IMG/VR virus record: IMGVR_UViG_3300032308_002092
Coordinates: 87,208 to 151,207 of that record
Reading direction: 5' to 3' (one strand)
Origin: a virus
DNA: 64,000 nt
Made by a program: the position numbers and the translations under genes. Below are positions 6,673-21,907 of this stretch, in pieces (within the stretch, counting starts at the first letter, position 1; every line of letters starts with the position of its first letter). A model generated the notes under the pieces. It did no database searches. It was not told the DNA's origin and saw nothing but the letters and a program-made list of their open reading frames with translations.

Positions 6673-7024
6673 GGAGCGTCCTTCTTATTATCTCGTCTGT
6701 TATTAGTTTTGCTGCCTCTTTGTGTATCACAGAGTTGTCGCGTGGCACAGTGGTTACCCTATCTATGGACCCACTGGAACTCAATAGCAACACATTCACC
6801 TGATCTCCATTGGAGCTTAGTTGTATTACTTTAGCGTAATGGTTTCCGTAGCTGCAGTAAACAAACGGAGAATCTCCATAGCCTTCGCACAACCAGAAGT
6901 GCCAGTCGTCGCGAAGAAGAGAATTAGGAGGCATAGACACGTCAGGTTTGGTCTTAGGACGAGTGAACACTATTGTGTCTTCACCGTCTAGTCCTTTGAT
7001 TGTCTTAATCGATGAATTTGCCAT
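6665..7024 (-). CDS. Hypothetical protein
   Basis: ORF overlapping next gene. Confidence 0.6.
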   Translation of the reverse strand: MANSSIKTIKGLDGEDTIVFTRPKTKPDVSMPPNSLLRDDWHFWLCEGYGDSPFVYCSYGNHYAKVIQLSSNGDQVNVLLLSSSGSIDRVTTVPRDNSVIHKEAAKLITDEIIRRTLLV

Positions 7025-7187
7025 CTTTTATACAATGCCCCCTGAAGTAGTAGCCTTGTTTATCTAGGCACTCTTTTCTGTCTTGATCGATACACGACTT
7101 CACCATAAATAGAAACATCACAGAAACTAAGATCGTCAGCGCCAAGCTGTATGCAAACCTTGTCACGTAATTGTCCTTATCCATAGC

Positions 7188-7976
7188 CTACTCTTGTTGT
7201 GCTTTATTGAGATGGTCGGCAGCTGCTCTAGTCCACTCCACGTAGATTTGATCAGGGTACAGTCTGCCGAACCACGTTATGTCGCAGCCCGGAGTCCAGA
7301 AGTACCAGTTCCAGGTAGGGTGGTCGTTTAGCGCGTTGTTCCTAGCTGCTTTAGATCTGTTTGCTTCTTCTTGTAGCTTTTGCAGATCACCTTTTAGGTA
7401 GTAAAGTACTGCGTCTTCCATGCCTCTTATTGTTTCAAAGGCTTTGAGAACGTGTTTCTCCCATAGTTTACCAACGCCGTGTTGTCTATTGAGCATCAGC
7501 GTAGCATAAACTAAGTTCAACTGGTAGTGCTTGTAGACTGTAAGTGCCTCAATCAAAGCAAGTGGGCCTCTCAACCAATTGAGCAAGAAGTACCATATGA
7601 TGCGCCAGCCAGCAAAGTGCATCTTTAGCTTAAGGGTTGGGATACAGGCTATCAGCTGAGCAAACCCCAGTACTCCCAGCTTGTTTCGGCCATCTGTGGA
7701 CGACGGTGTTATCAGCCCACCAGTTTTAACTACGTATCTAAGCATAAGGATGTGGTCGATGGTTGACCCGCCAAGCATAGCACCTAGGAACATGTCCCTG
7801 CTAGATGAGTTTGGGTAATCCTTTTGCGCTATTGCCGCTTCTGGGTTGCGCCAGACTCTGCCGTCTCGGTCAATGCACTGAGACACGTATAGAGATGCTT
7901 CGTAGTCGCCAACATGAGAAAACATCCCTGCGTATAGGGTGCTGTCGCCATGTACTTCTTTGTATTTTGGGTTCAT
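7188..7976 (-). CDS. Hypothetical protein (late-type promoter)
   Basis: 262 aa, SD AGGAGG, GGTATAAC upstream. Confidence 0.75.
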   Translation of the reverse strand: MNPKYKEVHGDSTLYAGMFSHVGDYEASLYVSQCIDRDGRVWRNPEAAIAQKDYPNSSSRDMFLGAMLGGSTIDHILMLRYVVKTGGLITPSSTDGRNKLGVLGFAQLIACIPTLKLKMHFAGWRIIWYFLLNWLRGPLALIEALTVYKHYQLNLVYATLMLNRQHGVGKLWEKHVLKAFETIRGMEDAVLYYLKGDLQKLQEEANRSKAARNNALNDHPTWNWYFWTPGCDITWFGRLYPDQIYVEWTRAAADHLNKAQQE

Positions 7977-8027
7977 ATATCCTCCTACTCAGGGTTATAC
8001 CGAGAGGGTGGGGTGGTGTGGGCGCGC

Positions 8028-8041
8028 CGTAGCAGTGTCAG
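8028..8041 (+). repeat. CGTAGCAGTGTCAG box, copy 1 of 5
   Basis: Same 14-mer at 16045, 17705 (1 mismatch), 18999, 20258, all in the same orientation. Confidence 0.85.
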
Positions 8042-8045
8042 GTGT

Positions 8046-8105
8046 AGACTCGTCAGTCGCGTATACAACGCGAGACCAAGAGCGTGGCTACTCTTGGTTT
8101 CGTCT
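8046..8105 (-). ncRNA. Type II hammerhead ribozyme HH1 (3' of gene 8106-8612)
   Basis: Minus strand AGAC-GAAA-CCAAGAG(TAGCCACG)CTCTTGG-TC|TCGCGT(TGTAT)ACGCGA-CTGACGA-GTCT: full core, three perfect stems, GUC site; cleavage 8074/8073. Confidence 0.93.
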
Positions 8106-8612
8106 TTAGCCAACCAAAGCCCTAAGGTGCTCTGGGATTGAGGAGAGGTCGAGTTGCTTTGCTTTGTTTTGGCGAGGGGTCTTAGCTGGCTTGCTAGCTA
8201 CCATCTCAGCCCTAACATTAGCAATGAAGTTTTTCACTTCAACGATCTTAGTTTCTTCTGCGCCTGAAGCAATAAGATTCTTGAGTACCTCAGTTGCTTG
8301 CTTGATCTGTGGGTTAGTACGGCTACCAGGGTTTTTAGCTTCATACTTGCCGCCGCCGTTGATCTGAGGTGCCTTATTGAACCAGTTAGCTACGACGCTA
8401 GAAGCGTAAGACCTGAGTGCTTTGTCGTCATCTAGCTTACCAGCCGAGCGCTGTGCCAAGACGACTTCGCCAGAAATGAAGCCTTCAAGCATAAGGCTAA
8501 CGATCTCACGACGTTGCTCTTCAGTTACGTACGAAGAAATGGGGGCACTACTATTAAAACTAGAACCAAGGACCTGCTTAGTATACGTTACGACCGCTTC
8601 ATTTTGTTTCAT
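8106..8612 (-). CDS. Ribozyme-flanked family protein, paralogue A
   Basis: ATG 8612 with SD AGGAG; shares NWxxKxPxxNGGxKxxxKNPGSR and C-terminal xSxxPEHLxxLVG with 16919-17365 and 20305-20754. Confidence 0.85.
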   Translation of the reverse strand: MKQNEAVVTYTKQVLGSSFNSSAPISSYVTEEQRREIVSLMLEGFISGEVVLAQRSAGKLDDDKALRSYASSVVANWFNKAPQINGGGKYEAKNPGSRTNPQIKQATEVLKNLIASGAEETKIVEVKNFIANVRAEMVASKPAKTPRQNKAKQLDLSSIPEHLRALVG

Positions 8613-8636
8613 GGTAAAACTCCTATATAGAAACAT

Positions 8637-8693
8637 TGACTCATCAGTGCTGGAACCTACCAGCAGATACCCTTGGTATCGGGTATTTCGTCA
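8637..8693 (-). ncRNA. Type II hammerhead ribozyme HH2 (5' of gene 8106-8612)
   Basis: TGAC-GAAA-TACCC(GATACCAA)GGGTA-TC|TGCTGG(TAGGTT)CCAGCA-CTGATGA-GTCA; AUC site; cleavage 8666/8665. Confidence 0.93.
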
Positions 8694-8909
8694 TTAGTCT
8701 ATTGCTGCGTAGTCATCTGGGAAGAAGGTTTCTTCTTCCATCTGACGGCTATTGAAGTCTAGCTGCTCATACACATCGTCTTCATAGTCGGACAAATAGA
8801 TATAATCTTGGTTGATTTGCACCGTGTTCACGACCATACCATCGGGCATAACCACGGTTGAATTAGGATCTTGTTGCGAAAGAATCTTAATGAGTTCTGA
8901 AACCAGCAT
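8694..8909 (-). CDS. Small acidic hypothetical protein
   Basis: MLVSELIKILSQQDPN start, SD AAGGAGG. Confidence 0.7.
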   Translation of the reverse strand: MLVSELIKILSQQDPNSTVVMPDGMVVNTVQINQDYIYLSDYEDDVYEQLDFNSRQMEEETFFPDDYAAID

Positions 8910-8950
8910 ATCAAACCTCCTTTATTTACTTGTGCATATTGATTCGGGAA

Positions 8951-9355
8951 TCATGACCTGAGTGTTAGTCTAGTTCCATCTGGCATCGTCGTATAGCTTA
9001 CGTCGGATGGTAAGGCACTGGTCACTCTAGTGAAGGTTTCTAGTTGCTTGCCTTTACCATCGAACGATCGCGCGCAGCCTGTGCCATCACACAAGATGAA
9101 TGAGTCTTGGTTGTAAGTCTGAGCCATGCTCTTCATCAAGTCAAACAACGACCAGCCTATGGTGTTAGGCGAACCACTTACAAGCCAAACATTCTCCATC
9201 TGATCTTTGTAAGATCCTCTGACGTACGTAGTTTTAAACCCATTCATCCTAATGAAGAAGCCTAGCTGCTCATGATCCTGCATATTTCTAATGTCGTCTT
9301 TGTCGCTTTTGTCTGCGGAGATCAGAGCGAAGATAGTATCTAAATCTAGTTTCAT
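8951..9355 (-). CDS. Hypothetical phage protein
   Basis: ALISAD..GSYK..AQTYNQDSFI pattern (DUF3293-like, tentative). Confidence 0.6.
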   Translation of the reverse strand: MKLDLDTIFALISADKSDKDDIRNMQDHEQLGFFIRMNGFKTTYVRGSYKDQMENVWLVSGSPNTIGWSLFDLMKSMAQTYNQDSFILCDGTGCARSFDGKGKQLETFTRVTSALPSDVSYTTMPDGTRLTLRS

Positions 9356-9718
9356 GTTAACCCCACTTTCGTTTGTTTGCTAAAACACAAAGTACACCAA
9401 AGAATAAAGATATTAAGAACTTGAAAAAAGCATACTCAAGATTGCCGTTAATCAAATCAAACCATCCAAATACCTGTAGGAAGATACTTACGATAAACAG
9501 CGCGATGGCTAAGTTCACTTGCCTCTCCTTACGATCAGGAGGATCGCGGTAATTATTTTCTTAAAAAAGTCAATCATCTTTCTCTCCTTCTTTTTCTGGG
9601 TGAAATTTATCGAGCACCTTAGCGAAGATCATCAGCAGCAGTACTGTTACTGCGAGCCCACCGATTATTGATATCGGTATCGCGACTCCAATAGCTATAA
9701 CGTAAAGCAATATACTCA

Positions 9719-9925
9719 TTAGCTAACTTCCTCGCTTTCCTCGTAGATGTACCAGTCATTGGGCTTAAGACTAGCTGTCTTCTGCTCATACTCGTGTTTG
9801 CCGTATGAATACGCGAAGGCTCTGCCGTTCCAAACTATGAACGGAGCTGGGTGATCTTTGTGTGAGATCTTAGCTCCCTTGAGGGCCTCAATCAATGCTT
9901 CTTCTAGAGTCATGATCAGCTCCAA
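9719..9925 (-). CDS. Hypothetical protein
   Basis: MTLEEALIEALKGAKI...NDWYIY, a common phage small-protein pattern. Confidence 0.55.
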   Translation of the reverse strand: MELIMTLEEALIEALKGAKISHKDHPAPFIVWNGRAFAYSYGKHEYEQKTASLKPNDWYIYEESEEVS

Positions 9926-10060
9926 TCGTTAGGGTCTTTGTTTTTGCCCTTGACTTCTTCGTAGAAGATAATACAAAGCAATCCCACCATGAAGATGCCA
10001 CCAAAGAAACCCGCTATAGAAATTGCAGCCATGAATCCTGTTAATGCTGAGTCCACGATA

Positions 10061-10411
10061 TTACTCTCCTAGTATTTGTTGCTCTATTTGTTGCGTCATA
10101 TATTTGTCTAACGTGAACTGAATAACATGGTTGTGAACATCTTTTACCTTTAGATAAACCGAATGAGGTGTTAGATCGCCTCTTGAATTCAGATAGCAGT
10201 TCGCTACTAGCTTAAAGGAATAAGGGGTTTTTGGATGTTTTATGGTCTTAGATACTGTGGTGTACGACTTACCTTTTCGCTTAGCACACTCTTTAACAGC
10301 ATAATGGTAGTGAGAGATAAGGGCGTCTAGGGTAAATTCGCTGCCTTCTACTGGACCCAGGCTTAGGTCTATGATTGTTCTATGCTCTCCAGTAACCGTA
10401 AATAAACACAT
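10061..10411 (-). CDS. Hypothetical protein
   Basis: ORF downstream of a CCGAAAC motif. Confidence 0.6.
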   Translation of the reverse strand: MCLFTVTGEHRTIIDLSLGPVEGSEFTLDALISHYHYAVKECAKRKGKSYTTVSKTIKHPKTPYSFKLVANCYLNSRGDLTPHSVYLKVKDVHNHVIQFTLDKYMTQQIEQQILGE

Positions 10412-10459
10412 GTTGCTAACCCCTACTCGTTATCGTTGAATAGTATTGGTTTCGGATAC

Positions 10460-10696
10460 TCACTTAAGGTCTTGTGTCTCTGAGTAGAGAAGGTGTGACA
10501 TAGAGTCCATCACCACAAGAGTACTCTGCTTGCCATACTTAGACACCATGTCTGCCTTGAGGGAGCGAAACTCAGCTCTACACTTCTCTCGCTCTGCGAC
10601 TTCTCTGAAGTATTGTCTACCCTCGGCGGCCTCGTAGTAAGAGAGATCAGCTATGGATACTATAAATTTTTTGATTAGCTCGCAATTGTAGTTCAT
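10460..10696 (-). CDS. Hypothetical protein
   Basis: ATG 10696 with SD GGAGG. Confidence 0.65.
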   Translation of the reverse strand: MNYNCELIKKFIVSIADLSYYEAAEGRQYFREVAEREKCRAEFRSLKADMVSKYGKQSTLVVMDSMSHLLYSETQDLK

Positions 10697-10725
10697 GCAA
10701 CCTCCAATAAGATATTGGATCGGGA

Positions 10726-10956
10726 TCACCTATCGGATGGGTTGCCGTGGCCGTTATCGCATAAGTCTTCTCCACAGCCAGCGCCACCGCCACACCCATC
10801 ACCATAACCGTTGCCATCGCCATAGCCATCACCACTAGGGCTGCAATTACTTAAACCACAGCCATAACCATCGCCGCTTTTCTTAATATAGTTGTCACCA
10901 TTGGGTCTACCGTAATGGTAACCGTAGCTAAAACCATCTATTTCTAGAGATTCCAC
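10726..10956 (-). CDS. Gly/Asp/Tyr-rich IDG..PSD family micro-protein 1
   Basis: SLEIDG start, GYG/GDG repeats, PSDR end. Confidence 0.75.
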   Translation of the reverse strand: MESLEIDGFSYGYHYGRPNGDNYIKKSGDGYGCGLSNCSPSGDGYGDGNGYGDGCGGGAGCGEDLCDNGHGNPSDR

Positions 10957-10962
10957 GATAGC

Positions 10963-11181
10963 TCACCAATCAGATGGGTAGTGATCGAACCGATCTTCGG
11001 TGCCACTACCGCAACCATCACCATACTCATCGCTATGTCCATCACCTCTGCCATAACCGTCGCCGTCAGCAGTGCCACCACTTAAACCCCAACCATCACC
11101 ATCGCTGTAAGTATGACTATCGCCGTTGGCCATGCCGTAACGATCGCCGTAACCAAAAGCATCTATTTTTAGAGATTTCAT
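10963..11181 (-). CDS. IDG..PSD family micro-protein 2
   Basis: SLKIDA start, GDG repeats, PSDW end. Confidence 0.75.
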   Translation of the reverse strand: MKSLKIDAFGYGDRYGMANGDSHTYSDGDGWGLSGGTADGDGYGRGDGHSDEYGDGCGSGTEDRFDHYPSDW

Positions 11182-11201
11182 GGTTTATTCTCAGTCTGAG
11201 A

Positions 11202-11537
11202 TTAAAGCCACTTATTCAAGTCAGCTTTCATCACAAAGATATCCTTACCGAAGATCGTACCAGCTTCGTTTAGCACAGTCTCAGCCTGAGGACCTTCGAC
11301 GCACAGCTGGCCGAGACCCTTGGTCGTACCCCATCGGTGGATGTTGTAGGCGTTGTCAAGCCTGATTCTCTCGCTGGAGAGGCGAGTAACGAAGCCGATG
11401 AATACCCAACCGCGATCCATGACTGCGATGACTAGATCGCCGTTCTCATAGTCAAGCTTAGGCTGAGGTGCGCCTCGCAAAGACTCCTCAACCTGACTGT
11501 TGATTACATAATTACCGAATAACTTACTCTTAGCCAT
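11202..11537 (-). CDS. Conserved phage protein, possible Sm/SH3-like beta-barrel
   Basis: VIAVMDRGWVFIG...LDNAYNIHRWGTTKGLGQL; SD AAGGAGG. Confidence 0.7.
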   Translation of the reverse strand: MAKSKLFGNYVINSQVEESLRGAPQPKLDYENGDLVIAVMDRGWVFIGFVTRLSSERIRLDNAYNIHRWGTTKGLGQLCVEGPQAETVLNEAGTIFGKDIFVMKADLNKWL

Positions 11538-11674
11538 AATAAACCTCCTTTGTTTCTGTCTATATTTATATCGGAAATGATACTCTGTGGACCGTTACAA
11601 TCCTCTTTCGCTGTTATACATCAGAAATACAATCGCAACAGTGAAACCAAGTATAAGTAGCGCAAATACACTCA

Positions 11675-11890
11675 TTAAGAAATCTCGCTTGCTTCTACGT
11701 ATTGGCTGAAGATTTCTGGGTATCTTTGTACGTAACCGTTGTCTTCTAGGAAGTAGTACAGAGCTACACCAGGTGGTACTTCGTCATCGAAGTTGCTCCG
11801 CCAAGCGTAGTCTTCGAAGTCACTCGTAGTTAATCCCGTGACCTTAACACACAGCTTATCTACTTTGTTCATGTAAGACTTGAAAGACAT
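11675..11890 (-). CDS. Hypothetical protein
   Basis: ORF downstream of a CCGAAAC motif. Confidence 0.65.
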   Translation of the reverse strand: MSFKSYMNKVDKLCVKVTGLTTSDFEDYAWRSNFDDEVPPGVALYYFLEDNGYVQRYPEIFSQYVEASEIS

Positions 11891-11948
11891 ACAAACCCCT
11901 TATTGAAGACACCCCATCGTTGGGATATATAATCTGGTTTCGGGATTC

Positions 11949-12143
11949 TCACCAGTCTGATAGATCATCGTAGCCATAACAGTCACCGTAGCTCTCTCCA
12001 TCACCATTTCCATAGCCGTATCCGCTACCACTACCGTCGTATTCTGTAATGATGATGATATTAGGGCCTTCAGAGCCGCTGTCGCCGTCACCGTTATAGT
12101 GGCCGTCACCACAACCCCAGCCATCTATTTCTAGCTTGTCCAT
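11949..12143 (-). CDS. IDG..PSD family micro-protein 3
   Basis: MDKLEIDG...LSDW. Confidence 0.75.
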   Translation of the reverse strand: MDKLEIDGWGCGDGHYNGDGDSGSEGPNIIIITEYDGSGSGYGYGNGDGESYGDCYGYDDLSDW

Positions 12144-12149
12144 TGCTCT

Positions 12150-12389
12150 TCACTTATCTGACGGGCCGTGATGGCCCTTGCCACTGCCATCTCCAACAAC
12201 GAGATCTTGCCCCAGACAATTTAGATCATAACCATAGCCATCGCCATTAGGGAGGCTGTCTCCGTAGCCACAGCCATACCTCTCTCCATCGTAGCCATAA
12301 CCATAGTTCCCATGGACACCACTGCCATCGCCGCAGAAGTAACCGTGAAAGCGTCCATAACCTAAGCCGTCTATGTCTAGCTTGTCCAT
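12150..12389 (-). CDS. IDG..PSD family micro-protein 4
   Basis: MDKLDIDG...PSDK. Confidence 0.75.
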   Translation of the reverse strand: MDKLDIDGLGYGRFHGYFCGDGSGVHGNYGYGYDGERYGCGYGDSLPNGDGYGYDLNCLGQDLVVGDGSGKGHHGPSDK

Positions 12390-12392
12390 GGT

Positions 12393-12689
12393 TTATGCTT
12401 TACGCTTCTTCTTTTGGCCGTCTTTGATGGCCTGAACCTCTGCTTGGTCAAGCGGGACACCGTGGCGGTACCAGCTATCACCCCACACCGCGCCGTCTTC
12501 CCAGTAGGTTATAGCAGGGCTACCCTCACGATGTAACCTACCTTGGCAATACCAATACTCGGTGTCTACCTTGCCGTCTTCGCTATAGTAGACAATGGCA
12601 GGGCCATCCACACGATGTGGAACACCCTCCTCCAGGTATCGCTCGGACTCTACCTTACCGTTTTCGTAGTGTTTCTTAACGCACTCCAT
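12393..12689 (-). CDS. MORN-variant (HRxDGPA) repeat protein
   Basis: YENGKV..HRVDGPAI, EDGKV..LHREGSPAI repeats. Confidence 0.8.
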   Translation of the reverse strand: MECVKKHYENGKVESERYLEEGVPHRVDGPAIVYYSEDGKVDTEYWYCQGRLHREGSPAITYWEDGAVWGDSWYRHGVPLDQAEVQAIKDGQKKKRKA

Positions 12690-12701
12690 AAATCTCCTTG
12701 A

Positions 12702-12941
12702 TTACCAATCTGAAGGCATGTCATGATCATCACCTGAACCCCAGCCGTTGCCGTGGTTGTAGGACGTATCACCATAGCCAACACCATCGCGATAAATTGG
12801 GTGATAGCCACGACCATGGAGATCACTGCCACCATTGCCCCAGCCATCCCCACTCGCCATGGAGTATTCACCTTCTCCCTCGCCGTTACCATCCCACCAA
12901 CAGTCTGGTGAGCCGTCGCCATCTATGTCTAGCTTTTCCAT
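12702..12941 (-). CDS. IDG..PSD family micro-protein 5
   Basis: MEKLDIDG...MPSDW. Confidence 0.75.
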   Translation of the reverse strand: MEKLDIDGDGSPDCWWDGNGEGEGEYSMASGDGWGNGGSDLHGRGYHPIYRDGVGYGDTSYNHGNGWGSGDDHDMPSDW

Positions 12942-12948
12942 AAGTTAG

Positions 12949-13215
12949 TTACCAATCTGAGGGTTCTAAATCTTCCCCATCACCAGCACCATCTCCACCG
13001 GTGTCGCCACCAGAACCGTCGCAATAACCATCACCGCCGAGGGTGGTATAACCGCTGCCTCTTCCGTCGCCGGTTCCAGTGCCGCAGTCGCCGTCGCCAT
13101 AGCGATCGTCTGGTATAGAGGGGCTATAGCAACCTATACCGCCGTCCCCATTAGGGGACGTTCTGTCTACACCACAACCAAATCCATCCACAGCGAGCTT
13201 GCTTTCTAATATCAC
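12949..13215 (-). CDS. IDG..PSD family micro-protein 6
   Basis: KLAVDG...EPSDW. Confidence 0.75.
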   Translation of the reverse strand: MILESKLAVDGFGCGVDRTSPNGDGGIGCYSPSIPDDRYGDGDCGTGTGDGRGSGYTTLGGDGYCDGSGGDTGGDGAGDGEDLEPSDW

Positions 13216-13227
13216 TTAATATGTCCT

Positions 13228-13461
13228 CTACCAGTCAGAAGGGTCACCCTCAGGCTGTATCTCATGGAATTGGATGAATGTCATAGAATCGGATTTTGTG
13301 AGTTCGTGTTCGCCGTAGCCATAGCCGTCACCATTTGGTTTGGTTCTGCCTATGAAGCTATCTGGCGTTTTTACGCCCTCTCCAAAGCCGTCGCCATGTA
13401 TCCTACCGTATTGACCATAGCCGTAGCCAACTCCGTCTACGATCGTCTCGCCTATCTTCAT
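13228..13461 (-). CDS. IDG..PSD family micro-protein 7
   Basis: TIVDGVGYG...DPSDW. Confidence 0.75.
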   Translation of the reverse strand: MKIGETIVDGVGYGYGQYGRIHGDGFGEGVKTPDSFIGRTKPNGDGYGYGEHELTKSDSMTFIQFHEIQPEGDPSDW

Positions 13462-13927
13462 GGGTCCTCATATCCATTAAAGCTGCCCGCCAAGAAAAGC
13501 CGCCCGCCAAGAACGCTATTGAGCTTAACGTAGTTAAACTCTTCTTTTGAGGTTCGCTTAAGTGTTTCAAGCATAAATAGCTTCTTGGCTTCCTCTGATT
13601 CCATCACTTTGATACCATCTACCCAGATGCTGCATTCCGGACTACATATCTCTTCATACCCAGCCTTATATCCAGCAGCGGACACCTCTTCTAAAGTGAG
13701 AGGCTGGTCTTTGATGGCCTCATACATTTCTCGCACCTGTTCATACGACACTTCTGTTTTGCGATGAGGACCCCCAGTTTGTTGAGAGCCGTTCTCACTA
13801 CCTCCTTGACCATTATGGGAAACCATTAGGCCCATCACTATAAACGCCGCCGCCGCACCCATTACTTACCCTCCTCTTTCTTACACAACACCTATCTTCA
13901 TAGGTCCTCATATCCATTAAAGCTGCC
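13451..13927. repeat. 37-bp direct repeats (13451-13487, 13891-13927) flanking one gene
   Basis: CCTATCTTCAT[G/A]GGTCCTCATATCCATTAAAGCTGCC, 1 mismatch. Confidence 0.9.
13458..13862 (-). CDS. Hypothetical protein between direct repeats
   Basis: SD GAGGAGG; hydrophobic N-terminus. Confidence 0.6.
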   Translation of the reverse strand: MGAAAAFIVMGLMVSHNGQGGSENGSQQTGGPHRKTEVSYEQVREMYEAIKDQPLTLEEVSAAGYKAGYEEICSPECSIWVDGIKVMESEEAKKLFMLETLKRTSKEEFNYVKLNSVLGGRLFLAGSFNGYEDP

Positions 13928-14198
13928 ACCATTTACGTGGGGTGCGTGGGACACTTGCATGAGGATGCGGCTTTTCTATCTCAAGGTGCCGAATGGCTAC
14001 AACATCAAATAGCTCTATCCCATTCGTGTTGCGACCCTCTTTATCAACGTAAACACAGGAAGCAACCCCCGGAGCAAACAGCACCATTAAATAAAACGCC
14101 GGTGACCAATCAGCGCGTTCGTTGAATTCAACAAACGAACCCACTAGTCCGTTTCTAAGTGTGATCTCGTCCCAAGCCTTTAGTTTTGTAATATCCAT
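13917..14198 (-). CDS. Hypothetical protein
   Basis: SD AAGGAGG. Confidence 0.65.
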   Translation of the reverse strand: MDITKLKAWDEITLRNGLVGSFVEFNERADWSPAFYLMVLFAPGVASCVYVDKEGRNTNGIELFDVVAIRHLEIEKPHPHASVPRTPRKWWQL

Positions 14199-14238
14199 AA
14201 TGGCCTCCTTTTTATAGTAATTTTAATACACTAATCAT

Positions 14239-14548
14239 TCCCAAACTTCAATCTCACCAGTCAGCTCAACTACCTGAACCGGCTCACCTTAGGTATCTCA
14301 AATACAGAAACATCCTCGTCCCTTAGATTTTCAGTCTTGCCTATGGGAATTCTTATCTCATACAAAACCCCATCGCTACCTGTCACGCGAGTGTATCCAC
14401 GTTCTTTCAAGCTTGAGAGCTGCTCCCTCGTGAGGTCCTCAAAGATTTCTATGGGCACAGGTCCTTTGTCTGTCAAGAACCCTTCTTCAATTAACCGGTC
14501 AATTACTTTAGACATATTACAAACTACTCCCAAACTTCAATCTCACCA
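14239..14548. repeat. 21-bp direct repeats (14239-14259, 14528-14548) flanking one gene
   Basis: TCCCAAACTTCAATCTCACCA, exact. Confidence 0.85.
14270..14515 (-). CDS. Hypothetical protein
   Basis: ATG 14515 (MSKVID) with GGAG upstream. Confidence 0.55.
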   Translation of the reverse strand: MSKVIDRLIEEGFLTDKGPVPIEIFEDLTREQLSSLKERGYTRVTGSDGVLYEIRIPIGKTENLRDEDVSVFEIPKVSRFR

Positions 14549-14757
14549 CTCCGAAGGGGTCTCCCTTAGTATCCCTGTCTCTTGTACCTGCAAAATGGGC
14601 ACCGAACAACAGTCTAACATTACCTTGAGAACCGAAGTCCTCATCAAAGACTGGCAGGCTTCGTCCCATGCCTCACACTCCAACTACATACAGAACGAAG
14701 ATCCCTATCAGGATGGCAGCCCAAACCCCAATTAGTATCTCCATAGTCCCTATCCCC

Positions 14758-14952
14758 TTAAAGCAGGCTCAGTATGAAGCCTAGCACCACCAAGAACACC
14801 CAAAGCACCACAGAGTACAAAACAACAGTCAAGTACCATAGCCACAAAGCGGTCATCCCGACTATCTCTCTGAAGCCGGGGATAGACATCAAACCGCATA
14901 CTGCAGCTATAGCCAACACCAGTACGACCACCCTTGCCAGTAAGCGCCGCAT
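14758..14952 (-). CDS. Small membrane protein
   Basis: Two hydrophobic segments; SD GGAGG. Confidence 0.6.
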   Translation of the reverse strand: MRRLLARVVVLVLAIAAVCGLMSIPGFREIVGMTALWLWYLTVVLYSVVLWVFLVVLGFILSLL

Positions 14953-15023
14953 AACCCCTCCCCATATCGTGATTCATATACCTTCGGAATATAACTCAAG
15001 GGTCTGATGCCCACTTCCCACCC

Positions 15024-15233
15024 CTACTTAAACTTACAGCTCAAACCAGCTTTATTCAGGCCGTTATATCTATAGCAAATCACTTCGCTATTCTCTAGTC
15101 TGTACACACCAAAACCAACCGCCTTAGCTTCGCTAAAGCCATACTCACCGTCAACACCTCCATCAACGTTAGGCTCAGATACCCTAAAAGTACATCCGCT
15201 CAATACAATCAATCCAACCACTAGCACCTTCAT
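15024..15233 (-). CDS. Small lipoprotein
   Basis: MKVLVVGLIVLSGC lipobox; SD GGAGG. Confidence 0.7.
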   Translation of the reverse strand: MKVLVVGLIVLSGCTFRVSEPNVDGGVDGEYGFSEAKAVGFGVYRLENSEVICYRYNGLNKAGLSCKFK

Positions 15234-15289
15234 AAACCCCTCCCCACAATTACCCTACAACTATCCATTATCAATTCGGAATCCCATAC

Positions 15290-16250
15290 CTTACCTTCCC
15301 CAAACCCTGGGTGGAAGATATAGTAACCGCCGTAACTAACTTATAAACCCCTAAAATAACCTCTTATAACAACCTATACCCACCTATACCCAGTTATAAC
15401 TACCTACTAATCCCTATACCCTCAAATACCCTAATCCCCTACGTAACTACTACTATTAGATACACTTAAGTGCCAAAACCTACCGTAACTAACACGTACG
15501 TATCACCTTAACCCCATACCATTCCCAACCAACCACCTATACCAGTTAGTAGCACGAAAGGGATAGGGAGTGGACTGGTAGAGTTATAGTGATAATGATC
15601 CTCACCATTACTATAGGAAAGACATAAAAACTATAGTGATTTAACTAGCCTAGGGCGAGCCTATAGGCAGGTTGTTTCCGCCCACAACTATCCCTACTCT
15701 CGCAACAACATCTCTCACTTGTGGCCACGCCGCGGTAACCTATAGGGTTACAAATCACCACGGTTTTGCCCACCTATAGGTTTACAGGTCGGGTATCCTG
15801 CTCCCTCCTACCCTATCCCTACAGATACCTCCCGGGTGGTTTGCGTGTTGTCCTAGGGGTAAATCGGGTGTCGAGGAAATCATTAGGCTTTTTGGTAGTT
15901 GGGTTGGGAATGGTGCTTTCCCCTAGGGGTAAAATGAGATAGGTGGGTGGCTTTGTTGATATTGCTAGAGATTTTAGTTTCGGGATGATAGGAGTGAGAG
16001 AAGTCCTAGGGAGTTTTGCTCGTTTTAGGGCTTCGGGTGTGGGGCGTAGCAGTGTCAGGTGGTTTGGTGGGGTTGTTGGGCTACGGGGTGGGATAATGAT
16101 ATCAGTGAGTTACGGGTGTTTTGGTGGCGCGAGTTGGTGCGCTTAGGGCTGGGGGTTTATATACACTTTTATTTTGTGGTCTTGAGTTGTAGTTGGGAGA
16201 GTAGGATAAGTAGGGTGCGAATTCAAGTTGTTTGGGGGTGGCTATGATAA
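15290..16250. other. Mirror-symmetric non-coding region; candidate replication origin or terminus/packaging region
   Basis: C-rich left arm, G-rich right arm, iterated ACCTATACC and CCGTAACTAAC, central CCTATAGG/CCTAGG palindromes, 13-bp inverted repeat 15518-15530/15902-15914. Confidence 0.55.
16045..16058 (+). repeat. CGTAGCAGTGTCAG box, copy 2
   Basis: Exact 14-mer. Confidence 0.85.
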
Positions 16251-16263
16251 GCCCGTAGCCCAA

Positions 16264-16506
16264 TCAGACTATATACTCTTCGTCTAGTGGCTCATCGTAT
16301 AGGTGAGCTATGGAGTGCCATGGTCCTGGGACTGTGAAGAGGTCTAAGTTGCCAGAGCGTATAGCGTGAGCCTTAGCCATAGCTTCGTCCATGTCAGAGT
16401 GAGAGGAAACTACCCACGTCACTAGGTTGTGGACTTCGGAATCCACCTTCACGATAGTGTCGAAAGTAGAGTGGTCGTACATCACGAAGTACCTAATAGG
16501 TTGCAT
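16264..16506 (-). CDS. Hypothetical protein
   Basis: SD TAAGGAG. Confidence 0.6.
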   Translation of the reverse strand: MQPIRYFVMYDHSTFDTIVKVDSEVHNLVTWVVSSHSDMDEAMAKAHAIRSGNLDLFTVPGPWHSIAHLYDEPLDEEYIV

Positions 16507-16589
16507 AACATAGTCTCCTTACTTAATGGACAAGTTAATGAAGATGAGAGTCATTATCAACAAGAATATAGCCGCTGTGCCTGGATCCA

Positions 16590-16805
16590 TCACTCTGTCT
16601 CTTCCACGGTTATGGTGTAGGACTTGTCGTACTGGTCCTTCACTATGATGGTGCGCTTAGGTGACCTAAAGCTACCGTCTTCGTTTAAGTCCATCTTTAT
16701 CTCTACGTTCCTGAGCTTTATCTCAGTCGCCTTAGGTATGGCCGCAGTGATCACATGAGTGATATAGTCGCAGTATGCTAATCTCAACCCGCTTGACTTA
16801 AACAT
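16590..16805 (-). CDS. Hypothetical phage protein
   Basis: SD TAAGGAGG. Confidence 0.7.
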   Translation of the reverse strand: MFKSSGLRLAYCDYITHVITAAIPKATEIKLRNVEIKMDLNEDGSFRSPKRTIIVKDQYDKSYTITVEETE

Positions 16806-16843
16806 AGTCGTTCCTCCTTATATAGGGGATGGTATCGGAAACC

Positions 16844-16906
16844 GGACTCATCAGCATGGCTATCAGCCATGGACCTAGGATCTCGAGCGAGTCCTAGGTT
16901 TCGTCC
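16844..16906 (-). ncRNA. Type II hammerhead ribozyme HH3 (3' of gene 16919-17365)
   Basis: GGAC-GAAA-CCTAGGA(CTCGCTCGAGA)TCCTAGG-TC|CATGGC(TGATA)GCCATG-CTGATGA-GTCC; cleavage 16872/16871. Confidence 0.93.
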
Positions 16907-16918
16907 TCGGTTACGGAC

Positions 16919-17365
16919 TTATCCCACCAGGGATCTCAAGTGCTCGGGTAGTGCGGAGAGGTCCACAGTCTTGGCAGCAGACTTAGGCTGTGGGCGGTTA
17001 GCTTCAATGAACGCTTCGAGCTCAGCTGTAACTTCAGATCCCTTAGCGATCAGAGCCGCTTTGAGAGCTAGAGCTTGCTTGAACTCTGGGCTACCAGATC
17101 GGCTACCAGGGTTCTTGACTTCGTGCTTGACCCCACCGTTGAGGGCAGGTGACTTACGGAGCCAGTTGCTGAGCAGACCTGAAGCGTAGCTTCGCGCCTT
17201 AGCTTCGCTGTACTCCTTGCTCAAGCTGATCTCTCCGTTCATGAGTCCCGCTACGAGCATACCGATTGCTTCCTTGCGTTGCTCACTAGTTAGGGTGACT
17301 GCTTCCGCAGTTACTCCAACGATTGACTGTACGATCTCTACGACTGCCTTTGATTGTGACTTCAT
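16919..17365 (-). CDS. Ribozyme-flanked family protein, paralogue B
   Basis: ATG 17365 with SD TAAGGAG; NWLRKSPALNGGVKHEVKNPGSRSG..LPEHLRSLVG. Confidence 0.85.
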   Translation of the reverse strand: MKSQSKAVVEIVQSIVGVTAEAVTLTSEQRKEAIGMLVAGLMNGEISLSKEYSEAKARSYASGLLSNWLRKSPALNGGVKHEVKNPGSRSGSPEFKQALALKAALIAKGSEVTAELEAFIEANRPQPKSAAKTVDLSALPEHLRSLVG

Positions 17366-17383
17366 ATGTAACACTCCTTAATT

Positions 17384-17440
17384 AGACTCATCAGTGCCAG
17401 AACCTACTGGCAGATACCCTTGCTATCGGGTATTTCGTCT
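17384..17440 (-). ncRNA. Type II hammerhead ribozyme HH4 (5' of gene 16919-17365)
   Basis: AGAC-GAAA-TACCC(GATAGCAA)GGGTA-TC|TGCCAG(TAGGTT)CTGGCA-CTGATGA-GTCT; cleavage 17413/17412. Confidence 0.94.
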
Positions 17441-17444
17441 TAAG

Positions 17445-17594
17445 TTACCGACAGTAGTGATCGGCGTAGTTGCAGTAGAAGTCATAGACTTCGTCGTCAG
17501 TCCACGAGTCACAAGAGTAGTCTACGTCATCGTTTCCCGCTGCGATCATCTGAGCGAGGATGATGTTCACCGTAGTGCGAAGCGAACCTCTCAT
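17445..17594 (-). CDS. 49-aa hypothetical protein
   Basis: Not in track; MRGSLRTTVN...YADHYCR with SD AAGGAG. Confidence 0.5.
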   Translation of the reverse strand: MRGSLRTTVNIILAQMIAAGNDDVDYSCDSWTDDEVYDFYCNYADHYCR

Positions 17595-17704
17595 ATGAAG
17601 CACTCCTTGGTTAATCAACCTTGGTTGGTTGATAGTTATATATGGTATCGGGAAACTGGGGCTGCATCGGATCGTGGGGCCGAGGTGTGGGTTCGGGTGC
17701 TGGG

Positions 17705-17718
17705 CGTAGCAGTGTCGG
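17705..17718 (+). repeat. CGTAGCAGTGTC box, copy 3
   Basis: CGTAGCAGTGTCGG. Confidence 0.8.
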
Positions 17719-17741
17719 GCTTCACGCAGACACCCTCGGTA

Positions 17742-17924
17742 TCACTCCAGACCCTTGCAGGAGCTAGCGTCGTTGCTCTCGTTGGCCTGACAAGCCACGT
17801 ACTTCTCGCTGCTTTCCTTGGAGTTAGCCACCGAGATCTCACCTACTACGTTGATGGAGGTGTTGACTACAACTCCGCCCACGATAGCGTACACACAGTA
17901 CAAGACCACTAGTTCGATGCCCAT
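17742..17924 (-). CDS. Small membrane protein
   Basis: Hydrophobic N-terminus. Confidence 0.5.
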   Translation of the reverse strand: MGIELVVLYCVYAIVGGVVVNTSINVVGEISVANSKESSEKYVACQANESNDASSCKGLE

Positions 17925-18016
17925 TATAATGCCCCTTATAAACCTTAAAGCCCACTTAAACTGCCATTCTAATAGCTAGAATGGTATTCTAAAATCTAGT
18001 ATGTTATACTTTGCCC

Positions 18017-18334
18017 TTACCCCGGCAAGTTCTGCTTGTAGTACAAGTCACCCCAGTCGATGTAGAAGTCCTCGACCTTAGCGTGATCCCAAGCGTCGGA
18101 CCACAGCTTGATATCCTCGTAGCTATCCATGCTCATCTCCCTGCCAGTCACCAACTTAAAGGCATCGTTCATGAACATATTAGCGTCTACGTAGTCATGC
18201 GAAGCGCACTCATGCTTATGGTTGTGCTTGTTAGCTTCGCATATATCAACCATAGTGGCTAGACCAAGCTCAGCCATCAGTAACTCGGAGAACTTTTCTG
18301 CTATCTGTTCGTGTAGCTCTACTTCGAAATCCAT
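18017..18334 (-). CDS. Hypothetical phage protein
   Basis: CASHDYVDANM motif. Confidence 0.7.
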   Translation of the reverse strand: MDFEVELHEQIAEKFSELLMAELGLATMVDICEANKHNHKHECASHDYVDANMFMNDAFKLVTGREMSMDSYEDIKLWSDAWDHAKVEDFYIDWGDLYYKQNLPG

Positions 18335-18489
18335 CGTTCACCCCGGTAAGTTGTCTAGTATAAAGTTAAGCTCTTCTACTACTTCGTCGGAAACAGGTTG
18401 ATCTAGTGCCTCATCAGGTACATCTGGGTAGTATTCCAGCTTGAATTCGTCCCAAGCGAACTGCATTAACTGTCTAAGCGTAAGTTCGT

Positions 18490-18699
18490 TCATTGTCCAC
18501 CTCTTTCTTCTAAGGCTTGATACACTCGCTTCAGTAGCTCTGTGGGTTCGGTATAGAAATCATCCTTATCTAACTGCACCATATCCAGGTTTATCAGCGC
18601 CTGACTGAACCTCATATCGGGATAGGTCCTCAAGTAGGTCTCTAGTATCCGTAGTAGCTCCAAGTTAGCATGTAGTCGGACGCTCGTTGGTTGACTCAT
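18490..18699 (-). CDS. Hypothetical phage protein
   Basis: YPDMRFSQAL..DFYTEP pattern; SD AGGAGG. Confidence 0.7.
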   Translation of the reverse strand: MSQPTSVRLHANLELLRILETYLRTYPDMRFSQALINLDMVQLDKDDFYTEPTELLKRVYQALEERGGQ

Positions 18700-18998
18700 A
18701 ATAACCTCCTAGTTACATATAGATATAGATTCGGATACGACTATCAGAACCACTCACCCTTTCTTACAATCACCACTCTACTCGCTGTATTGACTATCAT
18801 CGCTCTTCTCCTTCTGCCATCGGAGAAGTATCTCATAGCCTCTTGTAAAGCAGAGAATGAGTGTATAGTCATGAAAGACCGTGCATCAGTTGAGCCGTGC
18901 CAAACCTGAACTTGATACATAATAAACTCCAATGTGTAAGAGAACTTTGTTATTCTCTTATTAATAATATATAGTTACGGGAATTAAATTCCCCTGGG

Positions 18999-19012
18999 CG
19001 TAGCAGTGTCAG
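18999..19012 (+). repeat. CGTAGCAGTGTCAG box, copy 4
   Basis: Exact 14-mer. Confidence 0.85.
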
Positions 19013-19047
19013 ATAGTGGTATAATACCCTTAGGTTAAGGAGAACAC

Positions 19048-19524
19048 ATGGAAAAGCTAATCAAGCATAGCAACGGGCAGTGGACACTAGTTAAGGCCAA
19101 GGACACTAGTAAGCACGGCAACTTCGGTGGTGGTAACTCCTTTGACGGAGGAGACCAGTATGTCCCCTCTAAAGAGGGTATTGCAGCAAACGCGGCTAGA
19201 GCAGCGGAGCAGAAACGCCTAGAAGCAGAAGCGAGCGCAGTATCGGCTGCACACAAAGATGTAGCCGACAGAGGCGAAGTTCGCCGACGCACCGAGCCGC
19301 CGAAAACCGTAGAAGATCACCCACTACACGGCGAGTTAGTTAATCACTTCAAGAACAAGCATGGGTTGGACCATCACGCTGCGTTTGCTGCGGCTACTCA
19401 TGTCATGACTTCGGGCCTCGGCGAAAAGACTCATGAAAGTGACTCAGATAAAGCAGCTACTGGTTCTGGAGCAGCCGAGGCCAAGAAGATCCTGGCTGGT
19501 AAGGTTAAGACCAAGATCTCTTAG
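19048..19524 (+). CDS. Hypothetical protein, possible internal virion protein
   Basis: Only well-supported plus-strand gene in the early region; GGTATAAT at 19018-19025 and SD TAAGGAG. Confidence 0.75.
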   Translation: MEKLIKHSNGQWTLVKAKDTSKHGNFGGGNSFDGGDQYVPSKEGIAANAARAAEQKRLEAEASAVSAAHKDVADRGEVRRRTEPPKTVEDHPLHGELVNHFKNKHGLDHHAAFAAATHVMTSGLGEKTHESDSDKAATGSGAAEAKKILAGKVKTKIS

Positions 19525-19529
19525 TCGTC

Positions 19530-19796
19530 TTATATAAGACCTTGTTCACTCAGTTGCTTCATCAGTGAATCATCATTCTTAGACCCAAAGACTCTCACTA
19601 CATCCTCATAATCACATAGTTCATCGGGGTCGTCGTGACATACGAACGCTAGTCCTTCGACTGTCTTCCACACTGAGAACTCATATATGCAGTGAACTCC
19701 TGTCTCTACGTAACCATCAGGTTCAGTGATTGAGCCATCGAACATCTTCCCCGCTTCTAACTCTGCAACAAGTTGATCGACTGTGAACTTACTCAT
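19530..19796 (-). CDS. Acidic hypothetical protein (tandem paralogue 1)
   Basis: TGVHxIYxFxVWxTxEGLxFxCxxDPDE shared with 19873-20139. Confidence 0.8.
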   Translation of the reverse strand: MSKFTVDQLVAELEAGKMFDGSITEPDGYVETGVHCIYEFSVWKTVEGLAFVCHDDPDELCDYEDVVRVFGSKNDDSLMKQLSEQGLI

Positions 19797-19813
19797 AGTG
19801 ACTCCTTAAAGTT

Positions 19814-19873
19814 AGACTCATCAGTGTGACTCTTAGTCACAGACTATCTTCGTTTCGGAAGATAGTTTCGTCT
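19814..19873 (-). ncRNA. Type II hammerhead ribozyme HH5
   Basis: AGAC-GAAA-CTATCTTC(CGAAAC)GAAGATAG-TC|TGTGAC(TAAGA)GTCACA-CTGATGA-GTCT; cleavage 19842/19841. Confidence 0.94.
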
Positions 19874-20139
19874 TATGCGAGACCTACTGCACTCAGCTGC
19901 TGATCAAGAGTGTCGTCTTCCTTATCCTCCTCGAAGAACCGCTTGACATCGTCGTAAGTTAGTATCTCATCGGGGTCTTCAGTGCATATGAACCTCAAAC
20001 CTTCGTCAGTGTCCCACACCTCGAAGTCGTATATGGAGTGAACACCGGTGCTCACGCCTCCGTGTGACAGGAACTCACCTGCAGTTAGTCTACCATCGGC
20101 GATCGCTTCTTCTAACTCTCTGACTGTGATCTTACTCAT
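19873..20139 (-). CDS. Acidic hypothetical protein (tandem paralogue 2)
   Basis: Paralogue of 19530-19796; SD GAGGAG. Confidence 0.8.
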   Translation of the reverse strand: MSKITVRELEEAIADGRLTAGEFLSHGGVSTGVHSIYDFEVWDTDEGLRFICTEDPDEILTYDDVKRFFEEDKEDDTLDQQLSAVGLA

Positions 20140-20257
20140 GACTTCTCCTCATGTTGTTCACACATTAATAGAATCGGAAAACACACTAATAAATATTTAA
20201 GTTTTTCAACTCATTTATTTATTAATAATATATAGTTTCGGAAACTATATCCCTGGG

Positions 20258-20271
20258 CGTAGCAGTGTCAG
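20258..20271 (+). repeat. CGTAGCAGTGTCAG box, copy 5
   Basis: Exact 14-mer, adjacent to GC hairpin 20273-20297. Confidence 0.85.
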
Positions 20272-20304
20272 TGGGTACGGGCACCACGCCCGCACCCAAC
20301 TCAC

Positions 20305-20754
20305 TTAGCCAACCAACTTCTGGAGGTGCTCGGGAAGCGCTGAGATATCCACGGTCTTCTCGGTCTTCACCGGAGCGTTGGCTGCGATGAACATCAGGAG
20401 CCCAGTAGGAATCTCCTTGCCTTGCTCAGCCAAGTACTTCTTAAGCGCGATCGCTTGCTTGTACTCATTGCTCCCACTTCGTGAGCCTGGGTTCTTAGCT
20501 ACGTACTTCACTCCGCCATTCAACTCGGGCGACTTACGTACCCAGTTGTCCAGCAGTCCCACCGAGTAACTCCTCATCTTCTCGGGAGTGTCGTGCTTAG
20601 CCCGAGCACCCGCGCTCATATCAATCTCACCATCAACCAAGCCTTGTGTGATCAGAGTCAAGCACTCTTCTTTCTGCTCCTTGGTCAACTTAACTCCGGG
20701 AGTAAATCCCTCGATCCCACTCACGATCGCTACGACTGCATCTACTTGCTTCAT
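20305..20754 (-). CDS. Ribozyme-flanked family protein, paralogue C
   Basis: NWVRKSPELNGGVKYVAKNPGSRSG..LPEHLQKLVG; SD TAAGGAG. Confidence 0.85.
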   Translation of the reverse strand: MKQVDAVVAIVSGIEGFTPGVKLTKEQKEECLTLITQGLVDGEIDMSAGARAKHDTPEKMRSYSVGLLDNWVRKSPELNGGVKYVAKNPGSRSGSNEYKQAIALKKYLAEQGKEIPTGLLMFIAANAPVKTEKTVDISALPEHLQKLVG

Positions 20755-20772
20755 GTAACACTCCTTAAAGTT

Positions 20773-20829
20773 AGACTCATCAGTGCAACCACTTAGTTGC
20801 AGATACCCTTGCTATCGGGTATTTCGTCC
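20773..20829 (-). ncRNA. Type II hammerhead ribozyme HH6 (5' of gene 20305-20754)
   Basis: GGAC-GAAA-TACCC(GATAGCAA)GGGTA-TC|TGCAAC(TAAGTG)GTTGCA-CTGATGA-GTCT; cleavage 20802/20801. Confidence 0.93.
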
Positions 20830-21173
20830 TCACTTCTTCTTGAACACTAGTTCCTTAATCACATCGGATACAGTCAGAACTGCGAATCCCCCGACTAGAA
20901 CAACCATCAACATCCACGAGAGTTGCCAGAGATAGATCAGGTAAATCAATTCCATCGGATCCTCCTTGTAGAGATAGTTAGAATCGGGGAGGTTATTCTC
21001 ACCCGTTTCCTTCAGTAAGGGGAGGTAATATCGGGAAGTATACCCGCTAGCCTCTGCTTACAGGGAACCCCTTGTTTCGGAAGTACCGATGAGGGTGCCT
21101 AAACACTCTCTACATACTACTTTTACAACTATTGCCATAAGGGATAAACAACCATACCCACCGCCCTTACCCT

Positions 21174-21836: not shown

Positions 21837-21907
21837 GATTGTCTCCTCATATCACGTAGACGAGGAGGGTATGGGATCGGGGAATATTGGGGGTAGGGCC
21901 GATCGAC

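Follow-up and report, generated by a model that had tools for sequence, protein, structure and literature searches.

Why does a phage genome carry a row of very small proteins that agree with one another at their two ends and differ in between, set around a single gene for a small barrel protein? The question is raised by positions 10726-13461, minus strand, of a 64,000-nucleotide window, the whole stretch of viral DNA analysed here, which forms the last 64 kb of the 151,207-bp IMG/VR record IMGVR_UViG_3300032308_002092 (estimated completeness 91%). The genome is that of a myovirus, whose tail sheath is nearest to that of Myxococcus phage Mx1 (27.6%). The listing of open reading frames (ORFs) between 9500 and 15000 contains seven ORFs of 64-88 residues, here called micro-proteins W1-W7, and the barrel gene, here called the hub (Table 1). 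The original prediction had described an array of seven micro-proteins with conserved ends and variable cores, interleaved with the barrel gene and a MORN-variant gene, and had read them either as a library of interchangeable partners docking on one hub, or as precursors of ribosomally synthesized and post-translationally modified peptides (RiPPs). Coordinates, motifs and alignment bear out the description of the seven ORFs. The consensus is M-x-K-L-x-I-D-G-x-G-Y-G ... G-D-G-x-G ... P-S-D-W; the N-termini follow the pattern (K/S)L-x-[IV]-D-[GA]-x-[GS], the cores are Gly/Asp/Tyr-rich and variable, and the C-termini read PSDW in four ORFs and LSDW, PSDK and PSDR in the others. As for their nature, the micro-proteins are probably a locally amplified, de-repeated form of a (Gly-X)n partner protein, and would serve as tails for a hub with a predicted Sm-like fold.

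The evidence comes from the relatives of the hub. Loci were fetched via the alignment of hub homologues from IMG/VR (80 loci), metagenome contigs (80) and prokaryote assemblies (34), and a partner was scored when a (Gly-X)n stretch spanning 20 residues or more lay directly downstream of the hub homologue. Partners have been identified in 68 of the 73 testable IMG/VR loci, in 44 of 53 metagenome loci (three more carry looser repeats) and in 30 of 32 loci from assemblies, that is, in 142 of 158 testable loci over the three collections. The pair occurs in phages and prophages of assemblies labelled Cyanobacteria, Planctomycetota, Bacteroidota, Actinomycetota and Patescibacteria, among many phyla. 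The start of the partner usually overlaps the stop of the hub gene by 16-19 nt, and a coupled start in the Gly frame is found in 67 of 68 IMG/VR loci. As a control, long Gly-X runs were counted in six frames: 132 lie beside hubs, 6 elsewhere in 404 kb of flanking DNA. Clustering of all the flanking ORFs at 80 loci revealed no other conserved neighbour, and no enzyme; antisense ORFs that looked like conserved neighbours were discarded as spurious frames opposite hub and repeat. Natural fusions are known as well, since the single chain of the proteins P0043 and P0044 runs from a TIGR02996-type N-domain through a (GYGDG)n stretch to a hub domain. The neighbourhoods of the hub homologues and the existence of fusions lend strong support to the tie between hub and micro-proteins that had been predicted, and on these comparative grounds the hub gene and the gene of its Gly-rich partner make up a two-gene module that is conserved and, in most cases, coupled in translation.

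Judged from profile comparison and gene order, the window family descends from such a (Gly-X)n partner gene. Alignment of the window family to the canonical partners with hhalign covers 13 N-terminal columns (probability 94.6%, E 6e-8), in which ..L-x-I-D-G-x-G-x-G is matched to ..L-T-L-D-G-x-G-Y-G; the shared element is an anchor, hydrophobic-x-hydrophobic-acidic-Gly, ahead of the Gly-rich part. W6 starts 20 nt past the hub stop on the same strand, and the remaining six copies of the window are all found within 2 kb, again on that strand. The loci of the closest hub relatives (L086-L088) carry one to five micro-proteins with a K-L-x-I-D-G start and an S-[DE]-x end. In L088 the hub is followed by three tandem genes that start with M-[DN]-K-[FL]-x-I-x-G and end with S-[DE]-R; in L087 five genes of window type are found upstream of the hub and adjacent to it; L086 has a single one, which follows the hub at a distance of about 650 nt.

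The array is part of a larger set. The whole genome was scanned for composition and motif and then searched with a profile, which gave exactly 16 family members in the 151 kb (E 1e-22 to 4e-12): the window's seven, a strict tandem of eight at genome positions 69399-71462, and a singleton at 85890-86186. The predicted array of seven has to be corrected accordingly into one portion of a 16-gene family, nine members of which lie outside the window. The hub is present in single copy. All 16 proteins are acidic (isoelectric point 4.0-4.6, net charge -7 to -19). Identity between paralogs is no more than 23-51%, and the expansion of the family is therefore old. The C-terminal consensus over the 16 is P-S-[DE]-[W/R/K/F/A]: ten end with an acidic residue and Trp, one with an acidic residue and Phe, five with Arg, Lys or Ala. 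The Ser near the C-terminus is the sole invariant column in an alignment of 20 sequences. Codons of the end motif vary synonymously (CCA/CCT/CCC/CCG for Pro, TCA/TCG/TCC/TCT for Ser, GAT/GAC/GAA/GAG for the acidic residue), which indicates that the motif is under selection at the level of the peptide, and not of the DNA. By comparative criteria, the micro-protein ORFs are real genes. The second array (genome 64000-76000) resides among three same-strand genes, for a ThyX-like thymidylate synthase, a metallopeptidase/VWA-like protein (468 residues) and a MoxR-like ATPase (374 residues), labels assigned by motif reading only (L002 1681-3087, 3952-4869, 9473-10597).

Relatives of the micro-proteins are rare. 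A profile built on the seven matched eight entries among 1.84 billion representative proteins, namely the phage's own proteins, P0007-P0009 and one spurious match, the unrelated repeat protein P0010 (456 residues), which was rejected. A word-indexed search added P0006, which comes from a different assembly and is 73% identical to W2. Orthologs of W3 are P0008 (71%) and P0009 (67%), and the reading frame is preserved in the orthologs. The best ortholog of the hub, P0016, is 89% identical. The two paralogs with detectable orthologs, W2 and W3, are thus maintained individually, and evolve faster than the hub. No Pfam, PHROGs or PADLOC-type family matches the micro-proteins (ten ORFs were scanned with Pfam and PHROGs), and weak matches to TrAA12 and to phrog families were set aside as compositional. 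Searches of 50,697 phage records with one micro-protein by tblastn gave no match, and blastn of the region against phages gave a single, irrelevant match of 58 nt. Nothing was found by scanning viral contigs with single proteins (hub, P0006, P0007), or metagenomes with the single hub sequence. Every paralog tested can be paired with an ortholog of its own (67-73% identity); the cores are thus not freely variable, and are better regarded, as far as sequences tell, as paralog-specific than as a freely shuffled library. The notion of a library of interchangeable partners on one hub stands in part: the occurrence of one hub and 16 partners, and the genetic tie between them, are in favor of it, free variation of the cores is not. 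Because of the linkage, the natural fusions and the ratio of one hub to 16 partners, one hub with many interchangeable tails seems a reasonable reading.

That the hub gene codes for a beta-barrel, as predicted, is supported by modelling. The AlphaFold2 (AF2) model, based on a 60-sequence alignment, has a predicted local distance difference test (pLDDT) score of 88, and consists of a helix (residues 5-20), a bent sheet of five to six strands, and a short helix (75-81) which comes after the invariant W-G-T-x-K-G loop. In a Foldseek search of the PDB every top rank was an Sm/LSm protein (E ~2e-3, TM(target) ~0.66). VIA-align, which is independent of Foldseek, compared the model to 48,161 chains, and nearly all the top 30 have an Sm/LSm fold (best Z 8.2, root-mean-square deviation 2.2 A over 65 residues). 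The hub has accordingly an Sm/LSm-like predicted fold, and the likeness is one of fold only; a search of PDB sequences with the hub profile gave only a chance match (E 0.13). At the family level, the hub matches PF22253 (DUF6948) over residues 37-87 with 23.1 bits (E 8.5e-5), below the gathering cutoff of 27 bits, and only 21 of the 60 aligned homologues match PF22253 at E <= 1e-3. By the Pfam criterion the hub is a divergent relative of DUF6948, and not a member. Foldseek against BFVD retrieved entries called 'DUF6948 domain-containing protein' (E 3.7e-7 to 2e-4) and a Rheinheimera phage protein (E 1e-9), and the ESM Atlas clusters nearest to the hub carry PF22253 (TM 0.66/0.85). Invariant columns (I37, R42, G43, G48, W69, G70, T71, G74, L75, G76, G82, T87) cluster at the turn between strands 1 and 2 and at the connection between strands 3 and 4, whereas the pocket loops of Sm proteins would be expected elsewhere.

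The hub domain is found in other settings too. A viral contig (L072:2860-3591, plus strand) encodes a 243-residue protein with two tandem hub domains, which hints that the domain may work as a dimer or higher oligomer. In P0035, P0033 and P0043/P0044 the domain is the C-terminal module of a longer protein; a Prim-Pol domain (PF09250, 86 bits) is present in one of these and a Cas1-like N-terminal fragment (25 bits) in another, and the last two are the TIGR02996-type fusions with (GYGDG)n. Fusion to nucleic-acid enzymes suggests a DNA- or RNA-related context for the hub domain. Residues 153-178 of P0039, which include W-G-T-x-x-G-L-G-E-L, give a sub-threshold match to Lsr2 (PF23359, E 0.006, 16 bits against a cutoff of 27), not used here as evidence.

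Of the micro-proteins, W6 was modelled, and is predicted to be disordered. The AF2 model of W6, based on the 20-sequence family alignment, has a mean pLDDT of 44.5 and no secondary structure, the first ten residues scoring higher (61). Such a result fits a disordered chain with a short linear motif at either end. In canonical partners Gly occupies alternate positions, and the composition is about 40% Gly, 16% Tyr and 14% Asp. The longest Gly-X run spans 3-11 dipeptides in the 16 paralogs (the maximum being reached by W7), whereas the median for 67 canonical partners is 28, and the window family is, in sequence terms, a de-repeated variant of the (Gly-X)n partner. A C-terminal Trp is enriched in the canonical partners, being found in 8 of 67 though Trp makes up 0.2% of the residues (P ~1e-12). 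RTX nonapeptides, GG-x-G-x-D-x-U-x, are absent from all 16 paralogs, the longest run of Gly-X-Y triplets is 1-4, and neither a beta-roll nor ordered beta structure is seen in the W6 model. RTX/beta-roll, collagen-like and poly-Gly-II (period 3) structures were rejected on periodicity.

Simple forms of the module are found among annotated phages. A tblastn search of the 50,697 phage records with the hub matched 115 Rheinheimera Barba phages, three Manatee Spring phages and two Rhodobacter phages. In Barba1A gp018, which is homologous to the hub, lies 3 nt ahead of gp017, which encodes a 69-residue Gly-Tyr/Asn/Asp protein. MW202613, a Manatee Spring phage, has a hub homologue whose gene overlaps that of a 104-residue Gly-Tyr/Asp protein downstream, mis-annotated as 'lamprin'. 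Barba gp018 is 40% identical to the hub over residues 37-110, including RGW and WGT-x-KGLGEL, and the Barba pair is similar to the window also in the position of the partner, directly downstream, and in the strand-like N-terminal anchor that precedes its Gly-rich part. Barba phages differ in having one partner made of near-perfect (Gly-Tyr/Asn/Asp) repeats, whereas the 16 partners of the phage studied here have diverged, contain short Gly-X runs, have cores specific to each paralog, and bear an additional P-S-[DE]-[W/R/K] tip. Published RNA sequencing of barba18A assigns gp018 and gp017, along with replication genes, to the first temporal cluster, with a peak at the first time point, when log counts per million are 13.0 for gp018 and 10.1 for gp017 (PMC9305737, Table S2). 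The Barba pair and the stand-alone DUF6948 (PF22253) phage proteins are all annotated as 'hypothetical', and no functional study of them was found; full-text literature searches retrieved no publication on an Sm-like/Gly-X module, and no phage paper on DUF6948 or the repeat motifs.

A scheme can be proposed in which the short, strand-like N-terminal anchor (hydrophobic-x-hydrophobic-Asp-Gly, here L-x-I-D-G) would dock on the hub barrel, itself probably an oligomer in the manner of Sm-fold proteins. The chain of acidic, Gly/Tyr-rich sequence would project as a flexible tail, and the tip P-S-[DE]-[W/R/K] would act as a second short linear motif, either folding back on the hub or engaging a host or phage target. 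In this way a single hub could carry any of up to 16 alternative tails early in infection. Docking, oligomerisation, the role of the tip and the biological function are all inferred. The scheme would resemble those of Hfq, SSB and eukaryotic Sm proteins, in which disordered tails, Gly-rich or acidic, tune binding by a barrel core, except that here the tails have genes of their own. Another near analogy for the role may be that of LSm domains which recognise short motifs in disordered partners. Closest in architecture are Sm, LSm and Hfq proteins, which share with the module a barrel core and a low-complexity, Gly-rich tail (SmD1/SmD3 Gly-Arg tails, the LSm4 RGG tail, the acidic C-terminal tip of Hfq); the hub has a predicted N-helix and a bent five-strand barrel, and P0043 and P0044 are single-chain versions. 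The module differs because the tail is a separate polypeptide, acidic instead of basic, and Tyr-rich, and because the hub has an extra helix and an invariant WGT-x-KGLG loop between strands 3 and 4. SSB and T7 gp2.5 have C-terminal tails in which a Gly-rich disordered linker leads to an acidic tip ending in an aromatic residue. The micro-proteins are alike in composition: the chain is flexible and Gly-rich, the end is acidic, and 11 of 16 terminate with Trp or Phe. Yet the hub core is not an oligonucleotide/oligosaccharide-binding (OB) fold, P-S-D-W is unlike D-D-D-I-P-F, and five paralogs end with Arg, Lys or Ala. Silk fibroin and the [G/S]Y[G/S] repeats of FUS recall the canonical partners in alternating Gly with Tyr, Ser or Asp, but the micro-proteins are tiny and highly acidic, and the window family is largely de-repeated.

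Several observations weigh against micro-proteins as tails of the hub. The nine copies outside the window are 12-28 kb away from the hub, and no hub copy lies beside the second, eight-gene array. The Gly-X runs are much shorter than in canonical partners. The fold matches of the hub have moderate scores, and VIA-align itself warns that a Z of about 8 can reflect a common arrangement; RGW and WGT-x-KGLG seem to lie elsewhere than the classical Sm1/Sm2 RNA-binding motifs, which are not evident in the hub. The evidence of expression comes from a distant homologous pair, in barba18A, and not from this phage. Part of these data would fit micro-proteins that work independently of the hub, as disordered acidic decoys which mimic nucleic acids or SSB tails and titrate host DNA/RNA-binding or defence proteins, the hub lying nearby as a remnant of ancestry. 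The high negative charge, the predicted disorder of W6, the 11 aromatic ends preceded by an acidic residue, the enrichment of terminal Trp in canonical partners and the distant, hub-less paralogs all agree with decoys, and the tip recalls the acidic, aromatic-ended tails of E. coli SSB and T7 gp2.5. We regard this as unlikely, though, because co-occurrence with the hub in about 90% of the loci and the overlap of start and stop codons across many phyla argue for a joint function; the N-terminal anchor, the most conserved element in common with canonical partners, would be needless for a free decoy, and 5 of 16 ends are not aromatic.

It is also conceivable that the Gly-Tyr/Asp chains are a self-assembling material, forming fibrils, gels or droplets such as a replication compartment, with the hub as nucleator, adaptor or anti-aggregation chaperone. 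LSm domains of the LSM14/EDC3 type have a role in condensates, and the Sm/LSm matches of the hub include peptide-complexed LSm domains (LSM14 with a 4E-T peptide, 6f9w; EDC3 LSm in decapping complexes). The alternating Gly and the composition of canonical partners fit this view, as does the expression of the barba18A module along with replication genes, and GYGYGYG peptides have been reported to self-assemble into polar-zipper fibrils (PMC8163036). Assembly is disfavored in the window family, which lacks long repeats and is heavily charged, and the W6 model has no ordered beta structure; a scaffold of this sort is improbable. Precursors of RiPPs processed by an enzyme encoded elsewhere, the other half of the original prediction, would be small, multi-copy, and fixed at the ends around variable cores, as the micro-proteins are. 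The idea can nonetheless be largely abandoned: the 80 loci contain no conserved enzyme or RiPP recognition element (RRE)-type gene alongside the pair, no match was found in Pfam, PHROGs or PADLOC-type families, there is no division into leader and core, a single Ser near the C-terminus being the only invariant residue, and the predicted fold of the hub is Sm-like, not PqqD-like or RRE-type. No more credible is the hypothesis that the ORFs are not genes, but by-products of a compositionally biased tandem repeat open in several frames, the DNA or RNA repeat being the functional entity. Alternative frames over the same DNA are indeed open, and some related loci have start-codon ORFs over the repeat only in other frames. 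The window copies, however, are diverged and not simple repeats, the end motifs vary synonymously, the Gly-frame start is coupled to the hub in all but one of the 68 IMG/VR loci, orthologs keep the reading frame, and Rfam finds no RNA family at the array.

Table 1. Genes of the micro-protein array and interleaved genes (positions in the window).
Gene	Position	Strand	Length (aa)	N-terminus	C-terminus	Net charge	Remarks
W1	13228..13461	-	77	..ETIVDGVGYG	PSDW	-7	
W2	12949..13215	-	88	..KLAVDGFGCG	PSDW	-14	
W3	12702..12941	-	79	MEKLDIDGDG	PSDW	-14	
MORN_2-like gene	12393..12689	-	98				interleaved, outside the family; Pfam 19.7 bits, cutoff 29.6
W4	12150..12389	-	79	MDKLDIDGLGYG	PSDK	-7	
W5	11949..12143	-	64	MDKLEIDGWGCG	LSDW	-14	
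DUF5419/phrog_519-like gene	11675..11890	-	71				interleaved, outside the family; weak match
Hub	11202..11537	-	111				divergent DUF6948-like; motifs RGW and WGT-x-KGLG invariant
W6	10963..11181	-	72	MKSLKIDAFGYG	PSDW		canonical partner slot
W7	10726..10956	-	76	.ESLEIDGFSYG	PSDR		GTG start

The layout of the array (Table 1) suggests how the micro-proteins may be translated. Genes are spaced by 3-12 nt, except where three non-family genes interrupt, and the start of W1 overlaps the stop of an upstream gene for a 134-residue protein. Interleaving with the hub and the MORN-variant gene was correctly anticipated, although the MORN_2 match is weak and a third interleaved gene, DUF5419/phrog_519-like, is present too. 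A strong Shine-Dalgarno sequence, AAAGGAGG, is found 7 nt upstream of the hub ATG (window 11538-11552), whereas most micro-protein genes have no ribosome-binding site and start 3-12 nt past the preceding stop. This difference suggests that the micro-proteins are translated by coupling or re-initiation, possibly with less output per copy. At many junctions TGGTGA, which encodes the terminal Trp and the stop, sits 3-8 nt ahead of the next start, and from this position may double as a weak ribosome-binding site. A scan for promoters and terminators found fewer promoter-like sites than in shuffled sequences. Rfam detected no family at the gathering threshold in window 7000-22000, and none within the array; the sole ribozyme-like signal in 8000-21000, a Hammerhead_II match at 17377-17440 on the minus strand, falls below threshold (29.4 bits against a gathering score of 37, E 0.014).

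ORFs in alternative frames (10647-10835, 10944-11081, 11900-12124, 12221-12358 and 12650-12922, minus strand) overlap the family genes on the same strand. These ORFs, which read 'MAMAMV..' or 'TATAT..', are by-products of coding rich in GGY-GAY-GGY-TAY, and could be mistaken for genes. Near the array, a 46-residue hydrophobic peptide unrelated to the family (9916-10056, minus strand) ends with DPNDWS, and a 68-residue non-family protein (9719-9925, minus strand) has KPNDW near the C-terminus. The P-N-D-W of these neighbours resembles the P-S-D-W tip, and may be due to chance, be a relic, or be the same docking motif. Farther along the window, two very large ORFs, 40343-47863 (2506 residues) and 50055-55418 (1787 residues), both on the plus strand, lie beside baseplate-like genes in the structural half.

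The Sm-like barrel and the Gly-X tail are among the most regularly linked gene pairs measured here, being joined in about 90% of 158 loci, and this phage is an extreme case. Its paralogs constitute a natural series from which to learn what the tail does, and which parts of it, anchor, core or tip, matter. The simple form is available in culture in Rheinheimera sp. BAL341 and its Barba phages, where both genes are transcribed, so that the question is directly testable. A bolder version of the scheme, to which we attach little weight, is that of a split Sm core with a programmable tail, in which one ring would be loaded combinatorially with up to 16 tails, each kept as an ortholog of its own and each bearing a docking tip, so that the various assemblies might capture or mimic different host nucleic-acid-binding or defence proteins, or seed distinct condensates, early in infection. 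If true, the split core and its tails would represent a new class of modular host-takeover machinery, found in its one-tail form in hundreds of phages across many phyla. Should the function of the tails lie in tuning or mimicking nucleic-acid binding, or in building condensates, the module would be a widespread early-gene strategy, and the counterpart in bacterial viruses of the regulation exerted by the tails of Sm and Hfq proteins.

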